Part shown: piece by piece, positions 7,321 to 60,100 of the stretch
Numbering within the stretch: the first letter of the stretch is position 1
Layout of the letters: each line of letters begins with the position of its first letter
Assembly (NCBI RefSeq): GCF_964355755.1
Contig: NC_092671.1
Location: forward strand, 12,710,001 to 12,774,000
Length of the DNA stretch: 64,000 nt
From: Antedon mediterranea
Lineage: Eukaryota > Animalia > Echinodermata
Reading direction: 5' to 3'
Made by a program: the position numbers and the translations under genes
The notes under the pieces: model-generated
Told to the model about the DNA's origin: nothing
The model's database searches: none
Seen by the model: the letters and a program-made list of their open reading frames with translations, nothing else

Positions 7321-10300
7321 TCAGGCTTCAATGATAGTGTCTTCTTTCAAACCTAAACAAAAATGACATTTGTTTTTATATAAACATATACAGTAACTAG
7401 AAAGCCACCTCCGCCTACTCTAAAATTTTCCTACATAAGATTTTTTCGGGAAAAAAATATATATAATATATTTGTGTGTGTCTTAATGCTGTTTGTGATT
7501 TAGGCTAATTTCACTACAAGCATGTATATGCGGGTTTGGTGTAATGGTTATGTAACAAGCCTTTCAATTAACAATAGCTTCAGTTGACTAACAATAGAAC
7601 AGCAACGCGAAAATCAAACAAGTGAATTTGAAAAGAAAAATAGGTTTTTTAAACTACTGGCATCAAAAAACCTGTACATTAAATCAAATTATTATACTCT
7701 TGGACAAGTAGTTCTCGAGAAAATGCAATTTCAGTTTACTTGTTACTTTAAGACTGCTCGCCGGCTTTTGGAAAATTCTGTCCTATCTTTTAACACTAGC
7801 AGGTCTGAAAAAAGTATACTAAAAAGTGGTCCAGAATTTGGACCATGGTCCCAAATGGTCCCAAAATTTAATGGAATGGTCATTGACCACATATCTATCT
7901 GTTTATTCATTTTGGTAAAGATCTTGTAATTACTTTTTGAGTAATAATAATTACAGAAATGTTATACGTGCATTCAAGCATTGTAAGACACTACTTACCA
8001 TTAATAATTCCTTTCAGAATACGTGTATCACCAACTTGATCAGCAATTTCACTCACAAAAAAACGAGCCACACCCATTAGCAAGCTCCCGTCATACATAA
8101 ACACATTGACGCTGTTAACGTCACTATATGGAATGTTCAGATACATCTCGAATCCACTGATACCACACCATTTATAAACGTGTATTTCATCGAACTGGCT
8201 AAGAACGACAAGATATGGAGTGCCTGCAAATATACAAACAACAAAAAACTAGTCTAAAATGTCCTATAGCATATTAATAGTTTTTCCCCTTTTGGGTGTT
8301 CCCACATTTATTTATTACACGGCAGTAGAATTAATTAAAATAATAGTCAATTCACCGTCTACACTGAAGCTATCTAGTCCAATAACGCCTTGCCCCTCGA
8401 ACTCGGTTATTTCCGCCCATTGCTCGTCCTCAAAACATACTGTTACGACAGGCATATAGTAATCTGTAGCATCATAATTGTTTCTTTCAGATGCGGACAC
8501 TACGCAAGGCTGACCATTTACCTTTATGCTAACGACATCTACTATGTATTCACCAGAAATCTGATGCTGTAGCTACAAAAACAAAACAAAATCTCAATTA
8601 AAATAAAACAAATCAAAATATGAAGTATGAGCACTTCCTTAACTCGATACATCTAAAAAGGATTGGAAACTTTTCCCAAGTTATTTTAAGCCTGTTTTCC
8701 TGTCGACGTTATTCAACGCTATCGTTAAAAAAAAATCGGCGATCTTCTACGTAAACATTGAAATGAATGATTTACAGGAAAAGGTATCGTTATCATTTCA
8801 ACTTGATCGTTTTCAAACGATCGTCATTGAACTGTTAACGATCAACGCCGATAGTGTCGAAAACGTCGACAGGAAAACAGGCTTAAAAGAGAAGAGGAGA
8901 CCAGTTGAAAAACATCGGTGAATTGCAGAAAACCATGAAAGAGTAAAATAACAATTACAATAGGGAGTTTTCGCAATCTTACGAATACGATAACGGATAC
9001 GTCCAGCACACGTATTCGTTTTTCGTAAGCCAGTAAAAATCTGTTTCGCATATGCAACGAAATATTGAGGGCGCCGTCCAAAATATGACTGCGGTAAATT
9101 TGAGCGAAGCGCAGGTACGTGTTGCTTGGCTGCCTAGGCCTAGCGTAACATCAAAGCGAGTAAGGATTTTAAAAACTGCTATTTATCAAAATTGACCTGG
9201 CATTTTAGTAAATTACTTTAGTAAATTACTTTCAATAAAAGTATAATTACATTATAATCATGAATCATTTCTGATTCAAATGCAAAATGTGCATGCAAAA
9301 TAGATCAAAAACTATATTCGTTTTGTAGTTACGAATATGACTGGTGATATTCGTCAACACGAATACGCTTTACGAATAGGAAATGGGGATCAGCTCAAAA
9401 GTTTCACAAATGTGTGACGTATCCGTTTTCGTTATTTCGTTGCGAAACCTCCCTATTGTTTGCATTTTTTGGTAAAACGTATACATAGGGCTTAATTGCG
9501 TAAAATAAAAAAAATAATTTAATAAATGAAATTAATGCAGATCTATATAAACAAAATATATAATTACCTCAAAATTATTTCCGGACCATTGATAAATATC
9601 AGTTGTTGTAAGACCAGTTTCCAACTCAGAATCGTAATAATTGGCAAACACTAACCAAGGATCATAATCATCATGCTCAATAAAGAGAACAGTGACGGCG
9701 CCTTGCGTTACAAATGACTGTTTTAAAACGAATGATTTATCCCTTCCTCTATATAGATATAATCCTGAATTTACAACACTTGATCCTGTTTCAAAATTAA
9801 AAAAAATATTATGCAAAATTAATGAATTTTTAATTAATAAAAGGGCTTGCAGAATAATATTGTGTAATGACTACATTATGACCAAGCACCCAATGATCTT
9901 TCTTTAGACACTTTATCTGATAGAAGGCGTAATCTATGCTATAAGTTTGCTCTGAATTGTTCAAAAAGTATTCATTTTGGAAAATGGTTTCCAGTGAAGA
10001 ATGTAAGTAACATGAAACTAAGACGTTTAAAGTATCAACAACCCAAATGCAGAGTTGAATTAAAGATATAGAAAAAGTGCAATACCATACCTTATCTCGC
10101 TTCTAAATGAATAATCATTATATATCACGCAGTAGGCCTACAGCTATGTGATTCTTTTATTAATTTTTTTTAAATTTTACTATTTTAAGCTAAACCTTTT
10201 GAATGTTCCTGTATAGTATTTCTTGTGTAAAATGCATCCTTTTTTTATATATAATTATCATTGGTTTTATACTTTTATACAAATTTTAATATTGAGAAAA

Positions 10301-36811: not shown

Positions 36812-39800
36812 ATGGATGAAGACGGATATAGGGCTAATTATATCGAAGTGAAATTATGTGAAGTCGACAAATACTATGATATTTTTGAAGAAATTGGGAA
36901 GTAAGTTTTCAAATACATCACAATTTAAAAGGAGAATGAATAGAGAGAACTGGCAAGAAAAATGCTAATATTAATCGCTGAAATGGTTATATATTTTAAG
37001 GGTGTACCTATGTCTATACTTACTAAAGATAAATCAAGGTCTCATTATTAACAGAATCTGTTTAACGTTTCGAAAATGAATAACAATAATCATTTGTACC
37101 GTTGTATTTAATTGGTTACATGTTCTTGTTGCATGACCAATTATGAAAAGAGTGATCGATCCACCTTGATTTACTATCGGACAGTGTTGATAATTAGGTA
37201 TTATACAAAGCCGATTAGTTGCATTCCTTATTAAACAAATTAATAATCGTTGTATCTTGAACAACCTTGGTGGATCGGCAATTGAGATCGAATGTGGGTT
37301 ATTGCTATATTTAAATCCAATGTATGTATGTAAGATATGTATTTTTAATCAATTTTTACATTATAGGTGTTTATACAGATTGTAAAATGTTAATAGTTAA
37401 GTTATGAATTTCAATATAAATCAGAATAGGTATAATTCAATTTATTTAATAAGTGAATTGCTTGGGTACCGACTGCCAATCATTATAAGACTTCCAAGAT
37501 TAAATTCAATACGGTAGGTCTCGTACATTTTGGCCTAATGAATAAGTTAGCTGCTTGGGTACCGTACCGCAGTAAACAAGTAATATTAATTAGGCAAAAT
37601 CTGTCAAACTAGCCCCCTCCTAAAATAAACATTTCAATAGGCTTAATTCGTTAATTAATAAGTATGTCATTTGGATAAAGAGAAAAAAGGGCATTGGTTT
37701 ACAAATGTAATCATTATAATGCTGAATTTGCAAAAGTAAACTAAATCAAAAGGTCAGGCTATTTTTTTAGTACAATACACTTATATTTTGCATTTTACAC
37801 CAAGATAATTCGTGACGCGATAAATGTTTTTATAGTCTGCCATGAATACCACCGCTTTGTTTTCAAATTGAACGAGCGCTAAGAAATAACCAATGATCGC
37901 ATTGTTACCGTATAATCTTTATGACAATGCTTGATTAGTGCAGAACAGGCTTATTCAGTATTATATTAATCAGATACGTATAGTTATATTTGTATTACGC
38001 ACAGGAATTAAATGTACAACCACAATGAAAACAAATTGCTGTTCTCCTGACGTTAATCGATGTAGATTATCATGCCCATGTCCATTAATTTCAATACATA
38101 TTTTTACTAATATGTTATGTATAAATACATCGTACTATCATATTATTAGATAGTAGGTTTAACTTAACAGTTGAAATCAAAAGAAGTTGCTAATGACTAT
38201 ATGTAATATATATGACATTAAAAGGGTTTTCTCGTGTGAATATTATGGCCTACTCTTAATGTTTCAACTAAATATCTGATACACAAACTACGTGTATGAT
38301 GCACAATATAGCATACCTAATGATACGATGCTGTGATTTTAATTAAGTATATAATTATGTGTTTATGGCAATGATGATATAACAAGTATGATGCTATACT
38401 GATGATGTGGGCGATGATGCTGATTCGAAGACCAATACCAGTGCTACGTACTTAACGAACAAGGATAATTCTTTTACTTTAAGGGGTAGGTTCGGAGTTG
38501 TCCATCGATGTGTTGAGAAAGCTACCGGCAAGACATGGGCAGCAAAATGCGTTCGTGCCCTTCGTCGAAAAGACCGGGATGAAATCAAGAGAGAAGTTGA
38601 ACTGATGTCAATACTAGAGCACCCAATGCTACTACAATGTGGGGGCGCTTTTGAAGGGCGTTCTTCAATGACCATCATACTTGAACAGTAAGTATTCTCA
38701 TGCAGTTACTTAATTGTATTCTGTATTAAGTTTTAATTTATTTCTTTCTTATATTGCACAATCAACACCGGTACCACAATTTGGCGATGGTACACAATGA
38801 ACAATATACAACAAAGATTTGAAAAAAGTTAGGCCTACTATTAATAAAATCTCACCTTTTCAGTTTATACTGAATTTATAATTAGATAATCTGGGATCCA
38901 ATTTATAAACCAATTTATCAGATTTGAAAGACAGAATCACCGTGTGAGTTTTTAAAACAATATTGAAAAGAGCTGTTTATCGTTCCACTTGGAATATTTT
39001 CAAGGATCTAATTGCTTCTAGTTTTAAAAAGTATTTATAAATGGGACAATATTGAATTCATGATCTTTTAGAATATAAAATTAATTATGCTTGTAATTAA
39101 TTTCAAAGATTAGCTGCAAATTTGTAATCCTATCACCGTTTTTTATGGATCGATATAGGCTATATGAACCAACGTTTAAAAAATCACAAATTTAACTTAA
39201 TTTTGATGGGATCAAGAAAAATACGTTTATTCAATTATGTTGATTCAGAATATTTCCAGTTGTTGTTAATGTACGAAGTGTTCAATACTCACTTTTGTGC
39301 AATTCACCCATCTTGATTTATGTGATGTTTTCAGCGTATCTGGTGGGGAGTTATTTGAACGCATCATCTCCGATGACTTCGAGTTCTGTGAAAGCGACGC
39401 GGTCATCTTCATGCGGCAGATATGTCTCGGGGTACAACACATGCATAAACTGAACATTGTACACCTTGATCTGAAACCTGAGAATATAATGTGTATGGAC
39501 AAACGTAGTAATCGAATCAAGATAATAGACTTTGGATTGTCTAGGAAGTTGAAACCTGGAGAGGCAATGAAAGTGATGTTTGGAACACCAGAGTTCATTG
39601 CACCAGAAGTAATCAACTACGACCCTATTGAAACATTAACCGATATGTGGAGTGTCGGGGTTATCTGCTATATTTTGTAAGATTTACCATTAACATGCAT
39701 ATTAAAATTAAATATAATAATATAATATATCACGTAATGCATACTTATGAAGAATTTATTATGAAGGTGTATGTGTCATACAAATATAGGCATATTGATA

Positions 39801-42164
39801 AGAATAATTATGACGTTCTTAATGATGGCGCTATTTTTAATAGTCTTTCACACCTGTTCCGGCACGGTTTCGGTCCGGCAAATCGAACAGCAATGTTTCG
39901 TTTTCACGACGCTCCACGTGGCTATACGCCAATCGATATTCGTGTAGCAGCGTGAAAACGAAACATTGACGTTCGATTGGATTTTCCGGCGCCGGACCGG
40001 AACAGGTGTGAAATACACTTTAAACGTGTTTTTATTGTGATAATTTAGCATATCCCAACACATATAGCACAATTATGTACAAATTAATTTAATAACTAAT
40101 ATTAGATACTAAATGGTGAAAAGAGACGTAACATATCTAGCTACATAAGCATGTCATGATTACGTATTTGTATATAAAATGTGTATGTAGGTTGAGCGGC
40201 TTTTCGCCATTTCTTGGTGACTTGGATACAGACACTCTGAACAATGTAACTCGAGCGGAATGGGACTTTGACGATCCAGCATTCGACACTATTTCCGAAG
40301 ATGCTAAAGCATTCATTGAAGCATTGTTGATTAGACTTCCAAGGTAATGTATATCACACAGTACCTCAATGAAAATGAAGTGGTTTTTATCCACCATTTT
40401 TAAAACGGTTTGGCTGTTTACTTTGCAAATATTGTGTCTTCAAACAACTATAATATAGAGATGTCGTCATCGTTTTTTTTAATTCTCCACTAATACTGAT
40501 TATTATTACTTTGCAACCCAGTATGTGTGTCCATTGTATGTATTAATGATAAACAGGTGACACAAAGGGTTAAATGTTATAGTAATATTAATTCATGGTA
40601 CAGGACATTTCTGCCTTCATGAGGAAAGCGACCTTGAAATATGTTGTCGATTTACTCTGGGGACAACCCTTGGGGATGTAGCTATATAGTTGCTGCTACG
40701 TGTACTTAAATCAAAGTCCCAACTTCACAGAGTAAATGATAATAAACTAACACATCAAGACTCTGTGACACATTAATTATATATTATGGTCGTTTATTAA
40801 GACTAGTATTCTAAAATAAGGGGTTTTATACTCACTTTTAACTGCCAATAATCAAAAACATTTAATTAATTGATTTATTTAGAATACGAACCTTTTCGTA
40901 ATTCCAGCAATCTTTATCAAGGTAAATTTAAATAGGTTTATAACGGTCAAAAGTCATGTATTAATTCATGGGTTCGTTGGTAAAGTGAAATGTGTTTTAA
41001 TATCAAACAAAAAAGGGTGAACTAGCGTCATAACTGTACAAATTTGATTTACGATCAAGTGGCTGGCCAGTACTTAGCGATGGAAGAGAACATTCAAACA
41101 AGTGACTCCTTTTATTTTTCAGGAAGCGTAATTGTGCTGAAGAGTGCCTAAGACACGGATGGTTGGCTGGGGACACAAGGCCAAAGGAGACGACTCGACT
41201 TTCTACCGAAAAACTAAAAAGATACGTTGCTAAAAGACGGTGGCAGGTAAGTGATTTCAAGGATTAGTATAGCTTATGGAAGGCAATCGCCGCCAAAAAT
41301 ACAAAAGTAAAACAAACAACGTACTTTCACAAACGAACAACGTGCTTTCACAAACGAACGATCTAAATTAAAACAAACAACGTACTTTCACAAACGAACA
41401 ACCAACTTTCACAAACAAACAACCTACTTTCACAAACGAACGATCTAAATTAAAACAAACATCGTACTTTCACAAACGAACGAACTAATGTAAAACAAAC
41501 AACGTACTTTTACAAACGAACAACCTACTTTTACATTAACAGCGTATTTTTTTCAAACGGACAACGTACATTGGTAAACGAACAACCTGCTTTACCAAAC
41601 GATGTAGATTGCCGAATGAACTAAGGACTCGTCCATTTTCTAAGTCGGGTAATAAAGGTTTATCGAAAATACCTTGATTTCGCGAGAAACGTCATTGCAC
41701 AATGCATGCTGGGAAGGGTTTGGGAGCATAGCGCCACACCGGCGTATAATACAAACTTTATATGTGCAAAAGTTTCGATAAGAGGATATGACGTAGAGGG
41801 CGCTTAAAGCGAGCATTGCGCGCGTAAGCAAAACTCATCCTGACAAAACGCCGTCAAAACTACACGTGTGTAGATAGTAGTAGCTACCTTTTTACTGCAA
41901 AACGTATGCAATATGGCCGGTAACAATTCTGAGACCCTGAGTGAAGCAATTAGACTGTTGAACAGAGCAGTTGGACTTCTGGTTCAACATCCTCCTGGTA
42001 AGTACTACCATTTATTTTTAATTTTTGGATCTATTTATTATATTATTCCCTCTAACTGAATCTATACCATACTTCTGCTCAGTGTGTTGTTATAGCGACG
42101 GCTTGCTAGCATACCCACGAGCAGTACGTGATGGCCAACATGGAAGACTAGACCTTATTCAATA

Positions 42165-42195
<31 letters not shown>

Positions 42196-45100
42196 CAATA
42201 ACGTATTAAGTCAACACAGTATTAAAGATGGCCGGCAATAACTCACACAACCCGGGGAGTCATTATTTGTTTAGGCATTTCGAAGCTCTTTTTATTTGTA
42301 CTAATAATACTATGATTTTATTGTTTGCAATTGTAAAATTATAAAAAGTATGTGTCATTTTACGTTTTAAAAATCAACACCCATTGCCCGCTGACAGTGT
42401 GAGGTCACTGTTTTACCTATTTTCTAAACCACCACAGTGTTTTTTACTTGTGATTTAAGATCACTTCAAGTAGGTCATCAATCATTTTCGATAGTTTCTT
42501 AAAATAAGCCGAATATTCATAGATTCCTTACATATTTTTCTTATGAGCATTGCAGACCGTTGGATTTTAGCTAACTTTAGGGTTAATTTTTCATTATATA
42601 ATTTAGGCCTAAATAGAATTTTAATTTTTATATCATTCTAATGTTTGATATAAGGAACAATTATGAGTTGTTATTTAGTTCTATAATCGTGTTTTATATT
42701 CACAATTGCCAAATTAAGATGTTTGAATGCTAGCCAGCTGGGATTTACCATTATCACTCGGATGATGGTTATGTTTATTTTTCTGTGACCTGTTTAATGT
42801 TCATAATATACTAGTTTATGTTATTTTAATTTCTTTGGTTAAAAACTGTAATCAATATTTGTGGAAATTATTTTTAGTCATAATATAGCATGACCCCGCT
42901 TTATAATGGACGATGAAAAGTTGCATATGAACTTGGTATAACAAATGTAGATGAACAGCTCACTATAGGTACATATTAAAAATCACTGTTTGGTTGCAAC
43001 ATTTGCACCAAGAGATTCATATTTTAATTACTATTATGTAAACTGTTTTGCTTTAGATTCTGGTCCACAAGACCGTTCCGATAACAATAGGGAGTCTACT
43101 ACTACTACTACTACTACTACTAGGCCTACTAGTAGTAGTGGTAGTAGGCCTACTTCTAACATCGTGGATGAGCACAGGAGGCTATTCCGAAGAACACCAA
43201 TCGTAAGGATATATATATATATACAGTAAATTAAAAATGTGCTTTATAAACCTCATTATATAATATACAAAAGGACGTTTGCAAAGACAGTGTTACATTT
43301 AATAATGTAAGAGGGATAGATACCGGTACTACGTCGCGTTAGGATTTTTATACACAAGTATACAGGAGGGCAATTACTAACTTATTGGGTAACGGATTGA
43401 TAGCTGGTTCTTTAAAACCAACAATTATATTAGTCCGAATTATACTGATAATTTATCCATTTATATTGCGCAAATTTCATTAAAATATGTTCAAATTACG
43501 CATTTGGCCTTTCTCATGCCCCAGCTTCCTACCTCCTCCTGGTCTAAAGGGCCTTTCACACCTGTTCCGGCACGGTTTCGGTTCGGCGAATTGAACGCCA
43601 ATGTTTCGTTTTCACGACGTTCGACGCGGCTATGCGCCAATCGATATGCGCGTAGCCGCGTAAAAACAAAACATTGGCGTTCAATTGGATTTGCCACTAA
43701 TTGGAGGCCCTCAAACTGTCATCCTTATTTATATTTATAAACAATACCAATCCAAACAACAAACAAAGCCCATGCTCACATTGGCAAGACTAGTGACCAC
43801 AGGAATGGTCGAATAAATAGAAGACAAAATGAAAAAGAATCAATACATTTTTGGTTTGGCTTATATTAAGGATGACAGAGATAATGTTATACATAATATG
43901 TACAAATATTACACTGCCAGCCGCACACACCATTGAATACATAGGCCTACATACATTAACCTTAGCAAGATTTTCTATAATGTACAAACTCACTCTCATT
44001 TTTATTCCAGAGATGTTTTTGGCCTCAGCCATTGTGCTAAATGGGGAAAACTGTTAATTTGTTAATGACATTTTTCATTTACGTGGGTTTATTTTCTATA
44101 GATTCAATCTCGACGTGCAGCAGTCCGGCCTTACGCAATTTCTCCACGCAACACAAGTAAGACTTTATTGTTGAAAGTTTAAGCAAAAAGAAAATAGGTC
44201 TAAGTCGTACTTCATTGATATATAATATAAACATATAGGTTTGGTCTACCATACTTTCAAGTTTTAGCAGTAGAACTGAAATGAACAATATAATTTTGTT
44301 TTCAGTAAGACAATGGACAAAAGAAATCGTGTGTTTGCCAACAAAGGACTGCATTGAGGTACCGTCCCTATCATACCAGCGTATACTGCAGGCGAACGGC
44401 ATTGGTAAGAAAAAGATACGGTTTACCTGTAATGCAGATGCCGAAGAGGTCCGAAGTATACTATATAGGTATAGATTTACATTCTGACTTTGGCATGTTA
44501 TTAAAATATTACCCTCGCCCGAAGAGTATTGCATTCAAGATGTGGTTATGTAGGTCTATGTCTGTTCTAAATTCTGGAACTTTGAATTTACTTTGAAACA
44601 TAACTTTGGAGACGACCTATAGTGTTTCAATTCTATAGCGGGGCCTTTTATTACATTTTCTGAAGTCGGTATTAGGTTTCAAAATTTGTAATCTTTCTCC
44701 ACAAAAATATGACAACAAAAACCTTATAGGTACACTATATTATTACATATAATATTGCAATTGAATTGAAAGATTCTTTTCTATAAACTGACGTTTTCTG
44801 TTACGGTATTCAATGGAAATGTTATGTAATGTACGTGTGGAATTAGCCGAAACGTTTTAGGCAATACATTATGATGTCAGAGCTTAATAGGATGTAAATA
44901 ATTACAATGATGAAGACATATCGACATTCGGTATTTTATTACACTTTCACAATATGAAATTAGTTAATTTCCCCATTTTAAATATTGTTGAAAATTAGGA
45001 AAATTTAAACATAGCAAAAAACTTCCAAAAGCGGGAAAATTGAAATCTGTAACTGGTGGTGTACATGCAAAAAATAAGATATACCTGGCATGCGAATGTA

Positions 45101-48100
45101 AACAGTAGTAGGGAATCTTTAATTATAACACTGTAACCGGTAAAATAACGTGGTTTGTTTTCCCCTCCCATTGAAGTTCTTTTCCGGTGCTGCGAGACAC
45201 TGGAGGAATAGAATATTTAAGGGCGAAGGAGATGTCCAGAACTCAGTTGGTGTTTGTGGTGTCCGGCTTTTTGTCGGTTGAAGAAATGCGGCCTCTCTCA
45301 ACGGGAAGACTGTACATCAGGCCGTTACAGAAGGACATACCAATTGACCCGCTGGCCAGGATCGAGGGATCTATGGAAGAGACTTGTCATGTGTGCGGTC
45401 AAAGTATGCTATCAAGTCAAATACGAGAACACCTTGTTGAGTGTACTCCGAGCACATCCTCGCATGAGGTAGGCTATGTATATAAAATACCACCATCACA
45501 ATCATAACATTTTGCCATCCAAATAGTTTGTTTGCCTTTCTCCGCCGCCTCTAAAATTTGAATTGATATGAAAAAGGTTGCTGGACGAATTTTTGCTGTA
45601 AAGTATTCGAAGCAATCGTCAATAAGGCATAGTTAAATATAAACAAAAATATAGATAATATATTGCCTGGCTGAAATTCGGAAGAACAATTAAACATGAT
45701 AGTCAATCGGGGAGGGAAAATGGGTATATTTAGGCCTTGCTGTCGTCCTAGCTGTCGACCGATTCAAATACACAAATTATTTAAATGAATGTATTATGAA
45801 TATTGATTCCTTTAGAATACTGCAAGCGTGCCTATTACAGTTCCTGACAGTGATAATGATGATGTTGATGAACTGCTAGATGTCATCATCGACGCTCCTA
45901 TACCGGTAGTAAATGACAGGTAGGTGCAGGCGTTCGTCTGATTGAATGAATAATAATATAAAGATTATTGTACTGTATTTGGCACATGCCTGAAACAAAG
46001 CCACACAATGTCAGTTTATAATACAATACACTGTACTACAAATAAAACAGCCAACTCCTCTTAGCAGATATGAAGACAATTCAATAGAAGGACACTCAGT
46101 CACAACAATACAACCAGTGACACAACCACCAGTCTCGTTACAGACACTTCAAGATGTGTTAGCTGAATGTCTGAGTAAAACGTGAGTAACTACTACTGTT
46201 TCTGAATTATGAATTTAGTCTTTATGTTTTGGTGCAAATATTATGAAATTGATGCTGGTGACAAATATTAAGAGAAGAAAATGTAGTTGATGCTGAATAT
46301 AATAATGATAGTGGTGGTGGTGTTGGTGGTGTTGGGAGTAATGATCAATGAATGATAATATTCATTATGTAATTTCCATTGGTTTTCGCGTAGAACACCA
46401 TGTAATGAACGTTTATGATTTCTTATTTTAATAGGAATGAGGTGAGCGATCCGGTGGAGGTATTAAGGGTATACCAACATACGTTTTTGCGTGGCCGACC
46501 ACTGGATCAACTTGTGGAGACAGAGGAATTGGAAGGGGAATCTCTTCCAATATATGCATCTAGAGATGATATTTTTGAAACCGGAATGGCAGAATTAATT
46601 GAACAGCCTGGCGATTGGCAGCCATTCCGGTTACCCTTAGATGTGACATTTTATGGTGAGGAGTCCATCGACGCTGGAGGTCCACGAAAGGAATTCTTCG
46701 TGCTGATGCTGCAGGAACTTCTGCAAGAAGAGAGGAGGATATTGCAGAAGGATGATGATGGCAGGTACACCATAACTCAGGACGTCACTCAATTGAGAAA
46801 AAAGTATTATTATGGTGCGGGTCTTGTATGCGGTGAGTATTACTATTGAACTCCACTACATAAGGCAAAATAGACTAGATTTCATGTGTCCGTATCATTC
46901 AGCAAACACCGATAGACTGCTTTTTATGTTGGAAGAGGGTGGAATTGGCAGAAGCAAGCTACAATAGCCTCTTAATGAAATGTTTTTTCAATAGCGAGTA
47001 TTGATGTCTTTTTCAGGTCTATCAATGTTACAAAATGGACCACTGCCTTGTTTCCTGGCGGAAACTGAAATCGAGGCCATGTTAAGTGATGACACTGCAC
47101 AACAATCGGAAAGTCAAACGCAGTTTAAGGAAGGCTTCAACAAATTGGGGCTGATAGATGTAAGTTTGAAAGACATAAGTGACAGATTGGGTATTGCAGT
47201 TTGGCTTTATTATGTTTGTGTATTTGTGTCCGCGCGGGCATCTCCATTGATCTCCGATTCACCCGGATATTTGTTCTTATTCAGAATATTGGCCTAGGTC
47301 TATTGCTGAAACAAGAATAAATAGATCCTTTTTCGTGTTCTCCTAATATTTTTTTTACCTACATTTACGAAATCGCATTATGACTATGCGCTGTGTCAAA
47401 TTAATGTATTAATTACATTAAAATCGGCCACTCGCGAACGTCAAATTATTTAGTGTTTATTCCACAACTTCGTTGGGACGATTTTTTTCCAAATCCCAAC
47501 ATGCGTGCGTTTTTAGGCCTAAGCCTAACACTAGAATTTATCGAGGATCTAGTACGCGAGCGCTAAATATTCTTTATACGCGTATACGATTCATCTCCGA
47601 CACAATCGGCAAAGTTGAACATGGTTGAACTTTGCCGATTTGACTGCGATGAATCAGGGAGCCTTCCCGATTGCGTCGGCGACATCTGCGCGTGTAGCGA
47701 TTTTAATGGAAACGCTGTAGCGATTTTAATGAAAACCAGGCTTAACGCGCTCTAATTAGATTCATTGTTATTTTGGTTGACACTCTGACAGGTTTCCTAA
47801 TAATATGTACCGTAGCCTCTCTATTCAGTGCTGCTCTCGATTGTCGTAATGCCATTCATTTTTACTATTTACAAAAAGCTGCTTCGGGCGAAACCAATTG
47901 TTGTATTCCTCCTGCGACCGACAGCACGAAAGGCCCTGACAAACAGGATGATTCTTTCAATACTGAAGCCGGAATTCTCAGAAAGAGGATCAAACCAACG
48001 GAAAAGAGAAGACGGTGTGTACACAAAATTGATCCGATATGTAAAGGATGTAGCTGGTATGCATAACTGTTCCTTCATTATTTCGTTTACAAACAATGAT

Positions 48101-51100
48101 AATTCTAATGAGATAGATACATTTCCATACAACACACCCACGCCAAACACACACACACCATGGTGGGGAGAGGGTATCGAAATGAACTTCATCCGTCTGT
48201 CTGTTTCACAAGGCAAAAACATTGGTCCAATTTACTTACAATCTTGAACTGTGTATAGTTACTATAAATAACTACTAAGTATGTATGCCCACGTTTAGTA
48301 CCCACATACGTATGTATGTATGTATATACAGTATATTGTAGCGTAGTTCATGGTTTATCCACATTTAATAGTATAATTATTTCTAACTTATAAATATACC
48401 TCATGTTATGATTATATTTGTATAATTATGTAGGCCTAATATTTGTGTTTTTAATCAATTAAAAGTGTAAATTATGTATGGTGATAGAGTTGCAACATTA
48501 AATGTTGTCTTGTCATTATAACCTGTATTTTTTATTTTATGTATAGCTGGTAGACGAAGGGGTGTATCTTTGGAGCGGATCCTTCGGTTTGTGACCGGGA
48601 CGACAGAGCCTCCAATTCTCGGGTTCGCAATGCAACCCAGAATCGTTTTTGTTGAGGGGAGAAGCATTTTCCCCTCAAGTTCAACTTGCACAAATACGTT
48701 GTACCTGCCTACAAACGTATCCGATGTGCAAGACGAACAGCTGTACGAAAGATATGACGAAGCCTTTCTTTCCAATTACTTTGGAATTGTTTAAGTGTAT
48801 ATACAGCAGTATAATGTTCGTATGTGTGAGTGATCATTTTCCACCGTCCGGTTGTAAAAATAATGACGCATAAATTAATTCAGTGGCGGACGCAAGGGTG
48901 TCGCCCCAGTTGCCCGGGCAACACCGTTAATTTCATACCAAATGTTTTTTTTCTGTCACTTAAATTTTAGATCCCATTTCATTATTTATATATATATATT
49001 AACCATTAATCTCCTTGCATTGATGATATAACAAAGTGCTTGTTTTACCTCTTAAATACATTGTATATAGTAATTGTATTATAATATAGTAATATGTCTT
49101 TCGGGTATGAAGCGTCTCACATACACACAGAGCCAAAATAATATCTTGGACCTGCACTGTGTATGGACTCTAACCTTACGGTTTTCATTAAACACATCAT
49201 TCCATGCTATCCATTCTAAACTTCTTATTTCAAACTTTTGCATTCCTCTCATTCATCTCATCCTTTTTTGTCTTGGTGAAAAGGGAGGGTATTTCATATT
49301 CCTCCTCTGAGTTTATAGCCTCTCTACCCGAACACGAACAGAATAGAATAATGACTACTGTCATAACTACGTTTTTAATCAATTTTTATCATCTTTTTAT
49401 TGTCATTTATATATTTTAATTAATTGTATTTTTAAACATGTATATGATTTATGGAACCTGATTTTGACAATGTATCATATAAATTAGCGAAAAACAATAT
49501 ATTTTAAAATAATATTTAAATGTACACACATATACTTATAACAGAGCATTATAAAAGTTGGACGAAGCCACACAAGAAAAAAAAAACCATTGACGTTATA
49601 AAAGTCCAGGATTGGGAGAGTCTATATGTAAATTTATGACTGCAGCGTAAAATTCAAAGACTATTGTGTATAATTATTTGTTTTTACTGATATTTAGCTA
49701 GTATTTCAAGAGCTCGTATGAACAATGACGGCTCCCAAATATTTACATTACTGTTAATTATTACATCCATTTCATTCCTGAACTGTAACAGTTGTTCTTC
49801 ACCGAGAGGACATACAGTTTCCGGTACAACAATGCCAATTTCATCACCACTATCTGAAGGAGCGCAATCCCTATCAAGCCCGAACTGATCTGCATCTTCC
49901 TGAAAGAATAATGCAGTACGGTATAGATTTGTGATGTCGGTATTTATTTTGATATATTGGTGTCTGTAAACCGACTTACATGCAACGGCGCAGATCCGTT
50001 TTTAATAGTGAGGGGAAGGGACTTATAAAAATGAAATACATTGCGAGCAAAGCGAGTAACTAGGCTGGGGGACAGGGGCGCCACTGGTTATATTCACGCA
50101 AAATGTATTCTTCTTATTACTGAAATTACATACGATATGTCGATTGAAGTCTTACTTTCTATTTTGTTTCACCCCAATTTAATGATTTTGCTGTTGAAAA
50201 AAAAGATGGACAATCCCCGGCCCCCACTAGTAAATATGTATCCCCTTCCCCTCCCCCAGGATCTGCGCCGGTGCTTACGTGTGAATCATTTTGGTAAGTT
50301 AGATGCAATAGAAACCAATGCTTGTATGCTTTACATTATTTCTCTAACCTCTGTTAACAACTCGAAGTACTCGGATGATATAATACTATCCTCGCAGGCT
50401 ATATTCTGCATTCCCATAATAAAGAGCTGATTTGGTGTTTTATGGTGCTCCGTTCGCAATTTGTGATTGTTCCACATGTTTACAAACTCTTGTAACATTC
50501 TGTTGATAATAGGGCAGTATATATAATGTAATAGAAAAACGTGACATTCGTCATCATTACATAATATGCCAAGGTGTTCAATGTTCTTGAAGAAAGTATA
50601 CCATGAGCCAATCACAGCATCGAATACATCTCTCCATAGTCGTTCAATTCTAGTGTTGTGAACGCTACGTCCCGTGATAAAGCTTCCCCTTCCTGGTCCT
50701 CTGGAAGGATGATGGAGCATGAACCGAGCAACATCCACATTCTCAACACCCATGTCTGCTCTAACACGTGACGGTAATCCCCACACCCGTACTGCTTCCT
50801 CAAAACAATGTAAAACCGTTGTTGCCCTATTGTCTGTGTTACATCTGAGGTACACAAGTGCTCGGCTATATCCATCTACGCCACCATGTATCACAAACCT
50901 CCACCTGTTTAAAAAGAAAAAAGGTGTAGTAGTTTGTTGGGTGTTTTTGTCTGGTCATGGTGCAAGAAGGTTATATAAAACAACGTATTACCTAATGAGT
51001 TTGTGATTTCCGTCAATGTGAAACAGACTCAAAGGCGAATGAACCGAATATCGTCTTACATTCAAGCATGATGTCAATGCTCGTCTTTCTGGGCGGACAC

Positions 51101-54100
51101 GATGTAGTGAATCCCGCACCCGGTTGCGCTGTACAATGGTTCCATTAGCTATTAAGTGTGCGAGTACACTTTTCCAGCCTATAAAAAAATTGAGTGTAAC
51201 ATATAAATAAATAAATATAAACATATGCAATATGAACGAGTATGGAGTATGGCGCAAATGTTTTTTTTTAAATTGAGAGTCTATCTCCCAACGTATTAGG
51301 CCTGCATACTATATACCGTATGTTATAATAGCAACAACATTTACTCATTTACTTTGTGAAGCGCCTTCTCCGAATAAGCGCCGCACTCAAGCCCTCACAA
51401 ACACGCGGTGACTACTATAGTATATTTTTTGGGAGGTCCATATAGTTCATAGCAACATAATAAATAAATTGTATCGGTTCGATACATTTATTAAACGTCG
51501 CGATGTTTACAACTTTACTATAATAAACTGAGGTAGTCATATAGTACTGTACGTTATATAATAATTTATGATAGGCCTAAGCCAATATGGTTTGGTGCGG
51601 CACTTATTAGGGCATTTACAACATCATTTATTGATTGATTGATTTATTTATTAAGAAAACAATGAAAACAATACAAAAGCAGAATGTGCAACTGTGATAA
51701 TGATGTAGACCTTGATCATTAAAACGATGCATTTATAGTAGGCCTATAATATCATTGTTTAAACTAACACACCTGAATTAGGAAATGAACCAAGTATCCG
51801 TTCAATTTTGTTGTCCAGGTGGTCATCGGTTATATTGCTGTACTTCATACTCATAGATATCCCTGCTTCTTGTAATCGTCGCTCTATCGTCCGCTTACTG
51901 ACACGCAGAAGACCACTCATATCTTTCACAGTGAACCCATTTTCTGTATATTGTATAATTATTAATACATTCAAGTTGACATGCCATTTATTTCAATGAT
52001 TGAATTGTGTAGGTAGATTATAGTTAAAATGTTATGAATACACACTCAAACCATAATGCCAATTGTCCAATCCGGTGTCTACTCTCTTATATAGATTTAT
52101 GCACCTCTGCCTTTGTCAGCTTTCTACAAGCGCAATAGGCCCAAGTTACTTAGAAACTCTAGAGAGTGCATTAATGGCAGTGTGTTAACATGCACGTTCG
52201 ACTTTTCACTCGCGAGCGCACATGTTACGTACTACGATTAAAGCGTCCTCTAGATTTTATATCGAAATGAAGGTCTCTAATTAAAGACCACTTTTGAGAC
52301 CGATGTTTTAATTGGGTTTAGCAGCTTTGGCCTCTAATTAACTTTAATTAAGGACTGCCTAAGTTTGGTTAGAAGAAAACTAATAGAACTACTGAAGCAT
52401 GCATACATGTAATATTTATGAATACATGAATACATGTAAACGCAGTTTATTTGACAAATTCATTGTTATGATGCAGACATAAATTGCTTTTGTAATTAAA
52501 ATTTGAGGTGTGCGACAAATTGAGGAAATTGGGGTTAACTGAGGACAATTTGGGGTTGTCGGTGACGGTGGTATCCAGAAATATATAAACTAAGTAAGGA
52601 GGGGCGAAAAAACCTCGGAAAATGCGATGCCTAAATTAGTTAATTAAATCTACTATAGTACTTCACACATGTCACGTGGGATTTTGCGGCCACTACAGAA
52701 GTATACATTTAAATTACACTAAACACATAAACGCATTACATACCAATAAAAAATAACAGCTGTACTTCAGTGATGAGTAATCTGGGTCTACCTGGAAGTG
52801 AACCGTGAACAGTCTCAGGCCTATAGCCAAAAACACTTGTAGGCCTAAAAGTATTACCATGCTGACTTTCTTTAAATATTCGAGATGCTTCAAAGATGAG
52901 TGATACAATTTCGTTTTCTATACCAAATGTCAGACAGTCCCTGCATATGCCATCAAGTAAATGCACAGACGGTTGAATAGCATTTTGTTGTTCAATCTCT
53001 AGCAAATCAATTACCTCAGTAAGGCGTATACGTATCCTGGTTCGATCCTCGTCGTCCATGTTTGTATAGTTGCTTGTTTGTTTTTTTAATTCTAAAAACA
53101 CCTTATTTTTTATACCCGACTTAGAAAATGGACGAGTCCTTAGTTCATTCGGCAATCCACATCGTTTGGTAAAGCAGGTTGTTCGTTTACCAATGTACGT
53201 TGTCCGTTTGAAAAAAATACGTTGTTAATGTAAAAGTAGGTTGTTCGTTTGTAAAAGTACGTTGTTTGTTTTACATTAGTTCGTTCGTTTGTGAAAGTAC
53301 GATGTTTGTTTTAATTTAGATCGTTCGTTTGTGAAAGTAGGTTGTTTGTTTGTGAAAGTTGGTTGTTCGTTTGTGAAAGTACGTTGTTTGTTTTAATTTA
53401 GATCGTTCGTTTGTGAAAGCACGTTGTTCGTTTGTGAAAGCACGTTGTTCGTTTGTGAAAGTACGTTGTTTGTTTTACTTTTGTATTTTTGGCGGCGATT
53501 GCCTTCCATAATAGCTAGCGTAGTTTATATAATTTACCTTTCTTTCATTATAGTTTACCGGTCCCGCGTAATGGTTTATGATGTAGGGCGAATTGTTGTT
53601 TGCATTGACGAGTTTGTTTCCGCTTTACCAAGATTATGGAAGGCAATCGCCGCCAAAAATACAAAAGTAAAACAAACTACGTACTTTCACAAACGAACAA
53701 CGTACTTTCACAAACGAACGATCTAAACTAAAACAAAGAACGTACTTTTACAAACGAACAACCTACTTTCACAAACAAACAACCTACTTTCACAAACGAA
53801 CGATCTACTTTCACAAACGAATGAACTAATGTAAAATAAACAACGTACTTTAAAAAACGAACAACGTACTTTTACGCGAACAACGTATTACAAACGGACA
53901 ACGTACATTGATAAACGAACAACCTGCTTTACCAAACGATGTAGATTGCAGAATGAACTAAGGACTCGTCCATTTTTTAAGTCGGGTATAAAAACACCAC
54001 ATGACCTGAGGAAAATAAAATGTTGTTAATAGTGAGCTCTCTATATAGAGTATACACTATATAACTACATACAGTGTAGCATAGGTAAAATTATGGGACC

Positions 54101-57100
54101 CGCCTTTATTTTAATTTTTATCATTATGACGTCATCAAAATGAACACGAAGATAGCAATTTTGGAAGGAATTTATCAACAACATATTAACGTGTAGAAGA
54201 ATTTGGATGCGTAGAATATAGATGCGCGCTATTTTAAATGAACTATGACGCAAAAGATAAAAATACGACTTTTATAATTCAACTGGCCATAAAATGATGT
54301 CACAACATCCGATACGCAACATTTTTACATGAATTCGTATCTAGAATTCAACATCTTCCAGAAAACGTTTCATGAGGGTCACTTTTCCTCCATTTGTCAG
54401 GATGAGTTTTGCTTACGCGCGCAAGATACAGGCTGCTCGCTTTGAGATCCCTCTAAGGCATATCCTCTTATCGGAACTTTTGCAATTACCCGACTTAAAA
54501 AATGGACGAGTCCTTAGTTCATTCGGCAATCTACATCGTTTGGTAAAGCAGGTTGTTCGTTTATCAATGTACGTTGTCCGTTTGTAAAAAATACGTTGTT
54601 CGCGTAAAAGTAGGTTGTTCGTTTTTTAAAGTACGTTGTTTGTTTTAAATTTGTTTGTTCGTTTGTGAAAGTATGTTGTTCGTTTGTAAAAGTACGTTCT
54701 TTGTTTTAATTTAGATCGTTCGTTTGTGAAAGTAGGTTGTTCGTTTTTGAAAGTAGGTTTCGTTTGTGAAAGTACGTTGTTTGTTTGTGAAAGTACGTTG
54801 TTTGTTTTACTTTTGTATTTTTGGCGGCGATTGCCTTCCATACAAGATACTGTATGCCAAGTTGATGTACAGTATAACATATCACTATTACTACTGAGAT
54901 TAGTTTTAAGCATTTGAGCATAAATAGGAGAATAGTAGGCCTAGTTTTAATTCTTGTAGGCCTACGATACAAACAGTTTTCAACACAAAAATGTATGAAC
55001 TTATATAGACTAAATCATTATTAGTTATTCACTTCTACTGAACCATTTTGAACATCCAGGTCCCTAATACAATATTACTCATTGGAATAAACCTGTATAT
55101 GATTTCCTTTCTGATAAAGCAGAGGATATATCAGGCACAGATTAAGCACATTAAAAACCCAATGTGCATTCTAATAACCCGGATTAGTCAGTGCCACCAA
55201 GAGGCATCGGCAATGATCTAAAAAAGTTATTTCGATGTTAGGCTTGCTATAATGCAATGTAATGTTATAACATGTCTTTTATTGCTATTGCTATTGTACT
55301 ATTGGTTAAATATACGTGTGTGTTATAAGATTGATGGTTATGATGTGCTTATAGTCTCCCAGGGTTAACAAAGTCTAACCTGTTTTTCCGACAACAACAA
55401 CTTCATTTCGATTCTAGAACGTAGTTAGACATTACTATTTTCGCTATTAATTATTAAGTCTTAAATATTTAAATGAAGTCGTATTAAAATGAAGTCTTAT
55501 TAAAATCAATAATATTGCAGTAGTAAACTACATGGTAAAAATATGTCCTTAGTAGGAGGAATGGCCTTCCAGACATACCCCTGTGTGTAATCTGTCTAAA
55601 CACCATTATACTCCATTGTATGTCAGTTGTTTTGTTCTCCAACAAACTCGAATACTGAAGGTACATTATTTTGTTTGTTAATCCACTTCTTTTTCTCTTG
55701 TATTTACATTGATACTGAGTTTGGTTCTTAAGTCAATTAGTAAAGTATTGTTAACCACTCGTGCATTTACCATTATTTACAAGGGAATGTGTCTCATAAG
55801 TGAGACATTTCGTTTATATGGTATCTCCAATCTAACCTCGAAAAAGAAAATCCCGTTATTGTATAAAACTAACAAGAGCAAACTTTAATACGTATATTGC
55901 TTTTATTAGATGGAAATGTATACTATTTTTAATTAGTGTAGCAAGTTATTTTGTTTTCATCGGTATGAATAAATGTAAATGGATATGTTTTATTAAAAGA
56001 TCATGAAATCAGAAATTCGGTTAGAGTCATTATTAATTATTAATTAATATTATTATTATTATCAATTTATAATTACAGAAAACAGCAATTGCATTACGAG
56101 CGATCCATCGAATGAACGTCTTAACGATGTTTGGAGGAAAGTCTGAATCTAATTCTGCTGGAAAATCAACCACACTGGAGAAACCAGACGAACTTAGTTC
56201 GACCGAAGAACAGAAACCATCCACTAAACGTGTATCGCGATTAAGACGACGAAACAGCATTGTTGATGAAGTCAGACAAAAGTTTGAACCGAATAACAAC
56301 GACCCATCCATTGGCATTGATGTTTTCAAAGAAACGATGTTTACAAAGGACAAAACAAGAACCATAATGGCAGAGAAAACACAAACATTTACAAAGTACC
56401 AGATGCCTTCGGCTATACTCGACACTTTGAAAGACCAATGTGTTTGTAAAGGAGACACTGTAAAGTTTATCTGCAAAATTAATGGCAATCCAAGGCCCGA
56501 AGTTTGCTGGTTTAAAAACGGTGACGTCATCGATGAAAATAATCATTTCAAATTCGAGTTTGATGATATATGTCGATATTCTTTGATAATCAACCATGTG
56601 ACTGAAGATGATTTTGGTCGGTATTCAATCAAAGCAAGCAATACACTAGGTGAATGTGAATCTTCAGCTAACCTGTGCAAAAAGGGTGAGTTTTTTTTAA
56701 TTAATTTAAACGAAATGTATTATTTTTAATAGCGCCCCCTATTTAAACTATGTTATAGTTGTGAAAAGTTTCCGCTTTTTTCAAGTAAACAGATTCAATC
56801 ATCATGCGTACGGTATTAACTTAAAGTGAAAAACACCACTAGAAATTCCTATTGACAACCTGATATTAATAATTTTTCTCTTTTTTTCTTCATTGGATTA
56901 TCACTACTGCTATGATTTCCGGGTTCAATCAATAGATCAGTGAATTGTAATTATCTACAAAATAAATACTAAACATATCAATTAGTTATTTTGCATTAGG
57001 CCTACAATTGACAAAAGAATTAACGTTTATATGCATAGCCATTGTCATAGATTCGAAAACACTAATTAAAATTAGTCTGAAACTTTGTATGTGAACTTTA

Positions 57101-60100
57101 GTAGTAGCATTGAAATTAAACAATTGTTCAAATGCATTGAGACACTTTTGAAATAATACATTGAGACCCTTTTGATACTAATCGATTCAGGATTAGGTTT
57201 GAAATGTGACCCGGCAGCAAGTGGTATAAAGGAACAAAGTGTTTTTTTGTTTACGCTTTATTATCAATATAGTTTTTTTCATAGTAATAGTCATATTCAT
57301 GTTTAGAAAGTACATACGAGCTCATTGTAGAAATAACATTTGCATGCTGAATTTTAGGAATAATAAAGAGCAGGGGAAATTTATCGGTGACAATAAATAA
57401 AAGTGTATTGAAGAAAACACACAAAGTTAGGATTAAAATTATTTTATCGGTTTCTTTGAAATAATTCACATAACAATACAATTATAAAACTTCTGGATTG
57501 CTATTGGTCCTAAAATTAAATACTCTATGTTCTTATAAAGTGATTTCTAGGATTTATGGAAAAACAAATGTGTAGTGAAACTATTGGACCTTTCACATTT
57601 CTAGGCCTAATAGTAAACTATATAACTTTGATTATTTTATGAGATAAACATTTGTATTAATGATGTCATGGAACATATTTCAAATTTTACCCGAAGGAAC
57701 CATTTTACTGTTGTACTAGTTTGATAGACATAAACTTAACATAACATTGTTCACCTTTCTTCGTGAATTTGTCTCTAAATCACTCAACTTTAGAACTTAC
57801 AATATACAATTGTATGTTAGAACTCCTTAACATATTTCATTTCAATAATCCTTGTCGTAAATCTGGGTGTCAAAGAGTGTTGTTGGTAGCGTGTATATAT
57901 TATTTATTTGTGTTTCAAGTTTGATCTTTGATTTAATCACGTAGATTCTGTAACAATGCCCAGTCTGTAACAATGGACCTAATGAATAAAGAAATTTAAA
58001 ACTTGCTGAGCATTTATAACTATTGTACTGAGCCTACCACGGTGCCACTTTTCTTTATAGGCCTATCATCAACATTTAATAGTTTGGTATCAGTAATTAA
58101 TTTATGTGGTAATTCCCTTTCGATCTCAATATTATAAAAATATTCAACAATATTTTGAAAACACATCTACAAAATAAATACTAAACATATCAATTAGTTA
58201 TTTGGCATTAGGCCTACAATTGACAAAAGAATTAACGTTTATATGCATAGCCATTGTCATAGATTCGAAAACACTAATTAAAATTAGTCTGAAACTTTGT
58301 ATGTGAACTTTAGTAGTAGCATTGAAATTAAACAATTGTTCAAATGCATTGAGGCACTTTTGAAATAATACATTGAGACCATTTTGATACTAATCGATTC
58401 AGGATTAGGTTTGTAATGTGACCTGGCAGCAAGTGGTATAAAGGAACAAAGTGTTTTTTTGTTTACGCTTTACTATCAATATAGTTTTTTTCATAGTAAT
58501 AGTCATATTCATGTTTAGAAAGTACATACGAGCTCATTGTAGAAATAACATTTGCATGCTGAATTTTAGGAATAATAAAGAGCAGGGGAAATTTACCGGT
58601 GACAATAAATAAAAGTGTATTGAAGAAAACACACAAAGTTAGGATTAAAATTATTTTATCGGTTTCTTTGAAATAATTCACATAACAATACAATTATAAA
58701 ACTTCTGGATTGCTATTGGTCCTAAAATTAAATACTCTATGTTCTTATAAAGTGATTTCTAGGATTTATGGAAAAACAAATGTGTAGTGAAACTATTGGA
58801 CCTTTCACATGTCTAGGCCTAATAGTAAACTATATAACTTTGATTATTTTATGAGATAAACTTTTGTATTAATGATGTCATGGAACATATTTCAAATTTT
58901 ACCCGAAGGAACCATTTTACTGTTGTACTAGTTTGATAGACATAAACTTAACATAACATTGTTCACCTTTCTTCGTGAATTTGTCTCTAAATCACTCAAC
59001 TTTAGAACTTACAATATACAATTGTATGTTAGAACTCCTTAACATATTTCATTTCAATAATCCTTGTCGTAAATCTGGGTGTCAAAGAGTGTTGTTGGTA
59101 GCGTGTATATATTATTTATTTGTGTTTCAAGTTTGATCTTTGATTTAATCACGTAGATTCTGTAACAATACCCAGTCTGTAACAATGGACCTAATGAATA
59201 AAGAAATTTAAAACTTGCTGAGCATTTATAACTATTGTACTGAGACTACCACGGTGCCACTTTTCTTTATATCATCAAAATTTAATAGTTTGGTATCAGT
59301 AATTAATTTATGTGGTAATTCCCTTTCGATCTCAATATTATAACAATATTCAACAATATTTTTAAAACACATCCGCGTTAATAAATAGTACTGTAAATAC
59401 AAATAAAAAACCATTCGGCATCCGGCAAGCCAGCCAAATAAACTAAAGAGGTACACTATCATTACACCTGCTAATTAAACCAGTGTTATACTCGGGCTCT
59501 ACAATCTTCTTCCTTTCCAATACCGATTAACGTCTACCACATACAAAAACAACATTAATGGGCAATTAAAACGAGATGAAAGAATGTGCATAGTAAACTC
59601 AATGGTTTTAAAGTATAGGGGTATAATGGTTAAGTGGATTCCAATACTATGACGATATCCTCTACCGTCTTGCTGTGCTTAAATTTATTCTATCATGGCC
59701 CCGGCGTGTTACTTTCCAAAAGCGGTGTATAACACTACTGTATAGGTAAATGCATTTTATATAGGCTACCGTAATTGGACAACAACATCAGAAAACTCTA
59801 TCAGTGTATTCGCAATTAACGCAGAAAATCAAAATTAGGCCTACTACAGTATATGTAATATAGGTCTCATTTATTTCATTGGGCCGTAGAGGCTGTTGAC
59901 GATAGAAAAGATTATATCACAATGTTATTTTGATCAGGTGTATTTACTTTTTAATTAGTTCAAATCTGTATGATTTATTGTTTCACCTGTTGAATAAAAT
60001 GTGACGTATTCGTTGAAAGCACATTCCAGCTCCAACCGAGAAATCAATGGAGCCACATCGTGATAAAAAACATCGGCAATATCTAAATTATTTAAGCAAA

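Follow-up and report, generated by a model that had tools for sequence, protein, structure and literature searches.

The window analysed here, a 64,000-nucleotide stretch of contig NC_092671.1 (positions 12,710,001 to 12,774,000) from the echinoderm Antedon mediterranea, carries an intact gene (41913..48794, + strand) for a miniature HECT-domain protein, hereafter the mini-HECT, which has lost the N-lobe's entire small subdomain and kept its catalytic and ligation-site residues. Textbook HECT catalysis requires this small subdomain to dock the ubiquitin-conjugating enzyme (E2). The deletion is common to a family of homologues from several animal phyla, and the gene belongs to a complete DNA transposon of the IS3EU/GingerRoot type. 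From sequence comparison and homologue models, we see about an even chance that the mini-HECT is a still-active ubiquitin ligase (E3) that would hold E2~ubiquitin outside the usual groove, probably acting on the transposon's own transposase.

The short interval at the heart of this finding lies within one exon. The motifs [14 protein letters not shown] and [11 protein letters not shown] begin at residues 453 and 488, respectively, and splicing and alignment place a linker of 21 residues between them (47058..47120, + strand) where the E2-binding small subdomain would stand; the original prediction had described a spacing of about 20 residues within a single exon. Because both motifs lie in exon 47017-47159 no exon can be missing between them, and a missed exon is ruled out as the cause. 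Measured from the Gly of the QNG motif to the Gly of the F-x-x-G motif, the interval is 33 residues in the window protein and 31 in its homologue P0026, against 106 and 108 in the full-length relatives L083 and L084 and at least 104 in L081 (exon joints in these three were placed by eye), 112 in P0263 (labelled HTD2), and 114 and 144 in the UBR5-like proteins P0266 (labelled EDD1) and P0265. On the original prediction's own motifs the canonical interval is 94-102 residues or more, and its figure of over 100 was about right. A canonical HECT feature, the N-lobe small subdomain with its E2-binding site, is missing (33 residues against 104-144 between the anchors).

N-lobe halves alone gave no Pfam match, and we used full-length HECTs to place the gap instead. 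Relative to these, alignment puts the loss at about 75-80 residues, equivalent to the whole E2-binding small subdomain and removed as one block, which begins past the helix behind QNG and runs up to the F-x-x-G helix. In an alignment to Rsp5, whose chain positions 114, 118, 125, 289, 394 and 400 plus 377 correspond to E491, D495, E502, G666, L771 and C777, the span from E502 to G666 is 164 residues in Rsp5 versus 86 in the window. By this residue spacing we estimate that the lost part would correspond roughly to Rsp5 577-655, so that V591 and L609, listed as the Rsp5 E2 site in a passage of PMC4965700, and F618, listed there as exosite, would fall within it. One passage of PMC3077247 places the E2 site on the small subdomain, in helices alpha6-alpha8 and strands beta5-beta6. 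Most family members have a further loss, smaller at about 15 residues, behind GGPRKEFF on the exosite side; this segment (in exon 46435-46832) stays longer in the window protein and a few early-branching rows, with P0001, P0185 and P0227 cited.

How the gap is closed can be seen in an AlphaFold2 model of P0026, made from a 97-row alignment of this homologue and not from the window's spliced protein. The model has a predicted local distance difference test (pLDDT) score of 90.7 overall and 95-98 over the junction, where a helix (176-183), a short loop and a second helix (190-202) bridge the gap as a helix-loop-helix; between model residues 152 and 234 there are no strands and no hairpin. The bilobed HECT fold is present in this homologue, and the model matches HECT structures, UBR5 being the best (Z 21.3, root mean square deviation (rmsd) 3.4, 279 residues aligned); its residues 44-220 span E6AP 483-761 with about 100 residues fewer. 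Alignment and homologue model together support the loss of the E2-binding subdomain that the original prediction had proposed, and no intact subdomain was seen.

The deletion is a property of the family. The homologues belong to crinoids, hemichordates, bivalves and cnidarians, and a single species often has several; the two anchors stand 33-43 residues apart in 120 of 125 aligned rows, an anchor being absent in the other five. A wider set, extended by a representative search that gave 420 proteins with E values of at most 1e-30, comprised 259 proteins, 195 of them informative: the gap measured 10-29 residues in 188, the canonical insert was found in none, and the remaining seven comprise internal deletions, one read-through and one tandem duplication. 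Among 80 metagenome loci, kept from 299 matches, a single match spans the junction in 70, with 26-38 residues. This spacer, common to aligned rows, metagenome loci and the wider protein set, rules out a deletion private to the window copy. The ratio of nonsynonymous to synonymous substitution rates (dN/dS) is 0.12-0.25 in six diverged pairs of intronless copies (three near-identical pairs, at 0.48-1.6 on very few changes, are uninformative), and relatives of the mini-HECT are under purifying selection. The single exon, the open frame, the family-wide spacer and this selection leave next to no room for a degenerate, copy-specific deletion or an artefact of the gene model. In one subfamily (L021, L025, P0113-P0119 and P0122) several gene calls end before or just after the catalytic loop, apparently where an intron or insertion splits the C-lobe. 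A scan of viral contigs returned no loci.

The window gene is predicted to have 11 exons (41913-41997, 43057-43202, 44102-44156, 44306-44468, 45177-45468, 45816-45919, 46068-46181, 46435-46832, 47017-47159, 47879-48056 and 48547-48794, all + strand) with GT-AG introns throughout, and scripted splicing of these gave an open frame of 641 amino acids. The coordinates first proposed, 46435..48794, capture the HECT part but only four of the 11 exons. In a similarity search the product resembles P0002 and others across both halves, and the nearest named protein, from the feather star Anneissia japonica, matches at 60% over exon 8. The last exon of the window gene exceeds the Pfam HECT cut-off (35.1 bits against 23.9), and an atlas search with residues 325-638 of P0002 gave HECT as the nearest clusters. 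In run X8, guessed to be RNA, introns and the empty insertion site described below were covered, with no splice joint among the matches listed. The atlas search also gave an unnamed Basidiomycota cluster (447 amino acids, no Pfam) that is feature-similar to the mini-HECT (score 0.92) and may be its fungal counterpart.

Around this deletion the ligation-site residues of the HECT domain have been kept. The C-lobe exon (48547..48794, + strand, identified by Pfam and alignment) encodes the catalytic Cys607 (48687-48689, + strand) and Phe638 at the -4 position (48780-48782, + strand), the cysteine and terminal phenylalanine that had been described as retained, and exon 8 encodes the acidic N-lobe residues E395, D399 and E406 (46658..46693, + strand), which the Rsp5 alignment equates with E491, D495 and E502. 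Counting non-gap rows, the Cys is kept in 113 of 115, Phe or Tyr stands at the -4 position (equivalent to Rsp5 F806) in 107 of 115, and the equivalents of E491, D495 and E502 are kept in 120/121, 123/125 and 123/124; only 32 of the 312 alignment columns reach 97% conservation. The position of Rsp5 L771 is mostly hydrophobic across the family. In Rsp5, E491, D495, E502 and F806 form a composite ligation site, serving transfer to lysine and not E2 loading, according to a passage of PMC4965700.

These residues bear directly on the view that the mini-HECT is a silent scaffold or decoy, binding ubiquitin, the transposase or chromatin factors without transfer. Such a role would accommodate the loss of the E2 groove and of part of the exosite region as well as the altered His and Phe of the catalytic loop, and the HECT of G2E3 is reported as non-functional in a passage of PMC3673628. 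Yet a scaffold has no obvious need for a Cys and three acidic residues with a ligation role, conserved at 98-99% over several phyla. Because of this conservation we argue against a dead decoy, disfavour the original guess that the protein might be one, and consider a scaffold of any kind rather unlikely. The other two original guesses, non-canonical charging and an E2 recruited in trans, are still candidates.

The original prediction treated the mini-HECT as a lone host enzyme; it is instead the companion, or second, gene of an IS3EU-type transposon, and its likely substrate and meaning therefore change. The element (41275..53510, 12,236 base pairs (bp), TATGG..CCATA), delimited by its termini, repeats and empty site, is flanked by 6-bp target site duplications ATAGCT (left 41269..41274, right 53511..53516). 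Its left terminal inverted repeat (41275..41656, + strand) is about 380 bp long, internally repetitive and 94% alike to the right end over 403 columns; the right repeat (53109..53510, - strand) is about 400 bp long, and 347 nucleotides match at 98% between the two. The DDE transposase (49684..53059, - strand; Pfam rva_4, E 6.4e-70) is an intact protein of 481 amino acids with D218, D275 and E312, encoded in five exons (53059-52744, 51943-51773, 51178-50992, 50904-50349 and 49899-49684, - strand), and its gene and the mini-HECT gene converge tail to tail. TAYGG..CCRTA termini, inverted repeats longer than 30 bp, a 6-bp duplication and an integrase-like DDE transposase are all present. By termini, duplication and transposase the element is of the IS3EU/GingerRoot type, described in passages of PMC10045372 and PMC12730594 as having TA..TA or TAYGG..CCRTA ends and 6-bp duplications.

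The element is mobile, and this insertion is recent, as shown by an empty site, interior pieces and contigs with other flanks. In 4/4 runs, from at most three samples, contigs join base 41268 to 53511, skipping 12,242 bases with six letters that match either flank (X8 has just 27 letters on its short side), and the empty site holds one copy of ATAGCT. Interior pieces of the element are also found in X1, X3 and X6, including 1,734 bases without a difference in X1, and contigs begin at 41275 with other flanks in 4/4 runs. At that base the depth rises about a hundredfold, a figure that is summed contig depth and not copy number. The insertion has landed in a host gene, within an intron; this gene encodes a protein kinase that carries an I-set Ig domain (exons 38392-40344 and 56073-56726, + strand), and we take it to be myosin-light-chain-kinase-like.

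The association of the mini-HECT with a transposase is not confined to the window. A transposase match was found at 25 of the 80 metagenome loci, in every case on the strand opposite the HECT, and at 20 of the 27 loci with at least 2 kilobases (kb) downstream, or, once near-copies are merged, in 12 of 18 clusters. One locus, L075, holds another complete element, which has the same ends and CTTTAG as its target duplication. Transposase and HECT identities correlate across 17 loci (rho 0.51, permutation p ~0.001), and the pairing is old.

It may also predate the deletion. Five intron-containing loci with HECT and transposase (L081-L085), found in bacterial and archaeal genome assemblies and most likely derived from animal host contamination, gave the full-length relatives. 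L083 encodes a helix, a ubiquitin-like domain, a finger and a full HECT, and a transposase of the same kind is arranged head to head with it; L084 has the same ubiquitin-like domain and a transposase in tandem; in L081 the pairing is less clear-cut, because what faces the transposase is a second HECT remnant and the full-length HECT lies past it. In a 28-row tree, 20 short forms fall on one side of a branch (91/90) and join four full-length relatives (100/98). These four are unnamed and the tree holds no named G2E3; we presume them to be G2E3-like. The simplest history would start from a full-length, transposon-borne class IV ligase (UBR5, G2E3, GL-Metazoa) that underwent a single deletion.

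Upstream of the HECT the protein begins with an amphipathic helix (41913..41997, + strand), where other family members have a SAM domain, followed by a predicted ubiquitin-like (beta-grasp) domain (residues 97-204, exons 4-5, 44308..45339, + strand; family profile E 6e-23) and a C2HC zinc finger (residues 220-239, 45385..45444, + strand) with a weak UBZ-like match, both its Pfam hits being under cut-off (zf_C2HC_14 E 0.048, zf_UBZ E 0.13). A model of the ubiquitin-like domain from the L075 homologue has a pLDDT of 92.9. Its best VIA match is the ubiquitin-like domain of TBK1, at a middling Z of 7.8 (rmsd 2.5, 81 aligned), and the listed rows are beta-grasp; Foldseek gave no match at E under 0.001, and the call rests on Foldseek plus VIA re-alignment. 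Among 73 long family proteins the ubiquitin-like profile scores in 56 and the C2HC motif occurs in 34.

At the N-terminus, family members carry a SAM domain or else an amphipathic helix, and the transposases appear to follow suit. In L075 (HECT 2627-3160, + strand; transposase 7542-7811, - strand) both proteins start SAM-like, with Pfam scores under cut-off, and in the window, L004, L007, L021, L026, L051, L061 and L083 the helix is paired with a helical N-terminal transposase domain. No mismatched helix and SAM pairing was seen, but the SAM case is one family. Matched modules are a possible docking code between the two genes, which we offer as a lead. They also bear on the view that the mini-HECT is an ordinary E2-dependent ligase with a new E2 surface on the large subdomain and a host silencing or defence protein as its target. 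Many N-lobe and post-linker residues are conserved, as such a surface would predict, and other transposons carry anti-silencing cargo such as TET/JBP (in a passage of PMC12730594); the candidate surface is hypothetical, however, and the apparent co-variation of HECT and transposase modules points to the transposase as target, making this view quite improbable.

We suggest instead that E2~ubiquitin would be held by the ubiquitin site of the C-lobe together with the ubiquitin-like domain, the zinc finger or a partner protein; that the Cys-ubiquitin intermediate would still be formed, and ubiquitin then ligated; and that the transposase would be targeted through the matching N-terminal modules of the two proteins, so that its activity is limited or timed. 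There are partial precedents for such an arrangement. The ubiquitin-like domain of UHRF1 can grip the back of the E2, as described in part of PMC6242706, and so exemplifies an E2 held by an accessory ubiquitin-like domain, though UHRF1 keeps its RING, unlike the mini-HECT. In Smurf2 (1zvd) the E2 is anchored to the HECT by another factor, though the HECT groove is kept, again unlike the mini-HECT. HECT cysteines can moreover be charged by way of the C-lobe when no E2 site takes part, as a passage of PMC4965700 describes.

Several points weigh against this proposal. The His two residues before the catalytic Cys is mostly Asn in the family (86/117) and Ser in the window, the Phe following the Cys is not conserved, and Rsp5 F778A impairs transthiolation in a passage of PMC4965700. 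A second passage of PMC3077247 puts E2 binding on the large subdomain, and in the same class the HECT of human and mouse G2E3 is non-functional according to part of PMC3673628. The ubiquitin-like profile does not score in 17 of the 73 long proteins and the finger motif is missing from 39; moreover, full-length relatives also have the ubiquitin-like domain, which therefore did not arise to replace the groove. Seven of the 27 loci with long downstream DNA have no transposase match, the pairing rate has no background comparison, and shared hosts or decay could inflate the identity correlation. Support for monophyly of the mini forms (91/90) is under the starred threshold and comes from 20 hand-picked rows, and the homologue searches were seeded with mini sequences, so that their counts define the family and not its share among all HECTs. 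Activity, expression and binding of the mini-HECT are predictions.

The likeliest of the alternatives, though itself doubtful, is that ubiquitin would come from a non-canonical donor, E1~ubiquitin or a host E3~ubiquitin, or that the reaction would run in reverse, with the transposase deubiquitinated and spared degradation. That the groove is completely lost while the ligation site is fully retained is compatible with any role that calls for HECT~ubiquitin but no E2, and a transposon would presumably benefit if its transposase were stabilised. A catalytic His that could serve hydrolysis is not evident, however, and we know of no natural HECT that uses another donor or strips ubiquitin, which we count against this alternative. 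HECT cysteines can be loaded without an E2, by small thioesters and via the C-lobe site alone, according to a passage of PMC4965700. Taken to its full extent, the mini-HECT would be a natural HECT free of an E2 dock, loaded from E1~ubiquitin or a host E3~ubiquitin or else deubiquitinating its own transposase, and coupled to it by SAM-SAM or helix-helical bundle modules; we hold this to be unlikely, if conceivable.

Set beside known systems, the element shares its termini, 6-bp duplication, inverted repeats and integrase-like DDE transposase with IS3EU/GingerRoot as described in parts of PMC10045372, PMC6839031 and PMC12730594, and differs in its second gene: in the fungal members described there the oppositely oriented second gene is an alpha-kinase, and in the window it is HECT-derived. 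The mini-HECT resembles class IV HECTs (UBR5/EDD, G2E3 and GL-Metazoa, in passages of PMC3673628), which are highly divergent animal HECTs and include its best structural match, UBR5; an LQN motif is common to the mini-HECT and UBR5-like proteins. Unlike class IV it lacks about 75-80 small-subdomain residues and is transposon-borne, and unlike G2E3, with three N-terminal RING/PHD fingers, it has a helix or SAM domain, a ubiquitin-like domain and one C2HC finger. With E6AP, NEDD4 and Rsp5 (1c4z, 3jvz and 4lcd) it shares the bilobed fold, the Cys, the -4 Phe, the acidic residues and a hydrophobic C-lobe ubiquitin contact; unlike them it has neither alpha6-alpha8 nor the beta5-beta6 hairpin, the host of the E2 site, and the His and Phe near the Cys are replaced. 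The new part is a conserved form without an E2 dock and with an intact ligation site. The words "HECT" and "ubiquitin" are absent from the main text of PMC10045372, PMC12730594 and PMC6839031 and from the supplement of PMC12730594, and in the literature searched, with Repbase, subscription journals and the supplements of PMC10045372 and PMC6839031 outside its scope, neither a HECT in IS3EU nor a HECT family lacking the small subdomain was reported.

We suggest that this clean, family-wide loss in several animal phyla, with ligation chemistry kept, is a natural experiment on which HECT parts are essential, and the family may reveal another route of E3 loading. The finding also suggests that transposon genes account for many of the multi-copy "uncharacterized HECT" entries annotated in bivalves, corals and echinoderms, and IS3EU elements gain a testable accessory function. 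Both proteins of this intact, recently inserted element would be good bench material.

The window also holds other repeats. Another element, non-autonomous and 1,208 bp long (53635-54842, TATGG..CCATA), has inverted repeats that measure about 355 bp (89%) and a 6-bp duplication of its own, CAAGAT; 124 bp separate it from the right end of the main element, and it lies in the same kinase intron. A small palindromic repeat of very high summed depth occurs in intron 2 of the mini-HECT gene (43553-43695) and in the host gene (39845-39987), the copies being 88% alike, and introns near 42300-42900, 47560-47730 and 49100-49400 contain further repeats of high depth. Farther right, a direct duplication (56989-59245) with a period of about 1.2 kb repeats the same short frames at 57230/58442 and 57745/58957.

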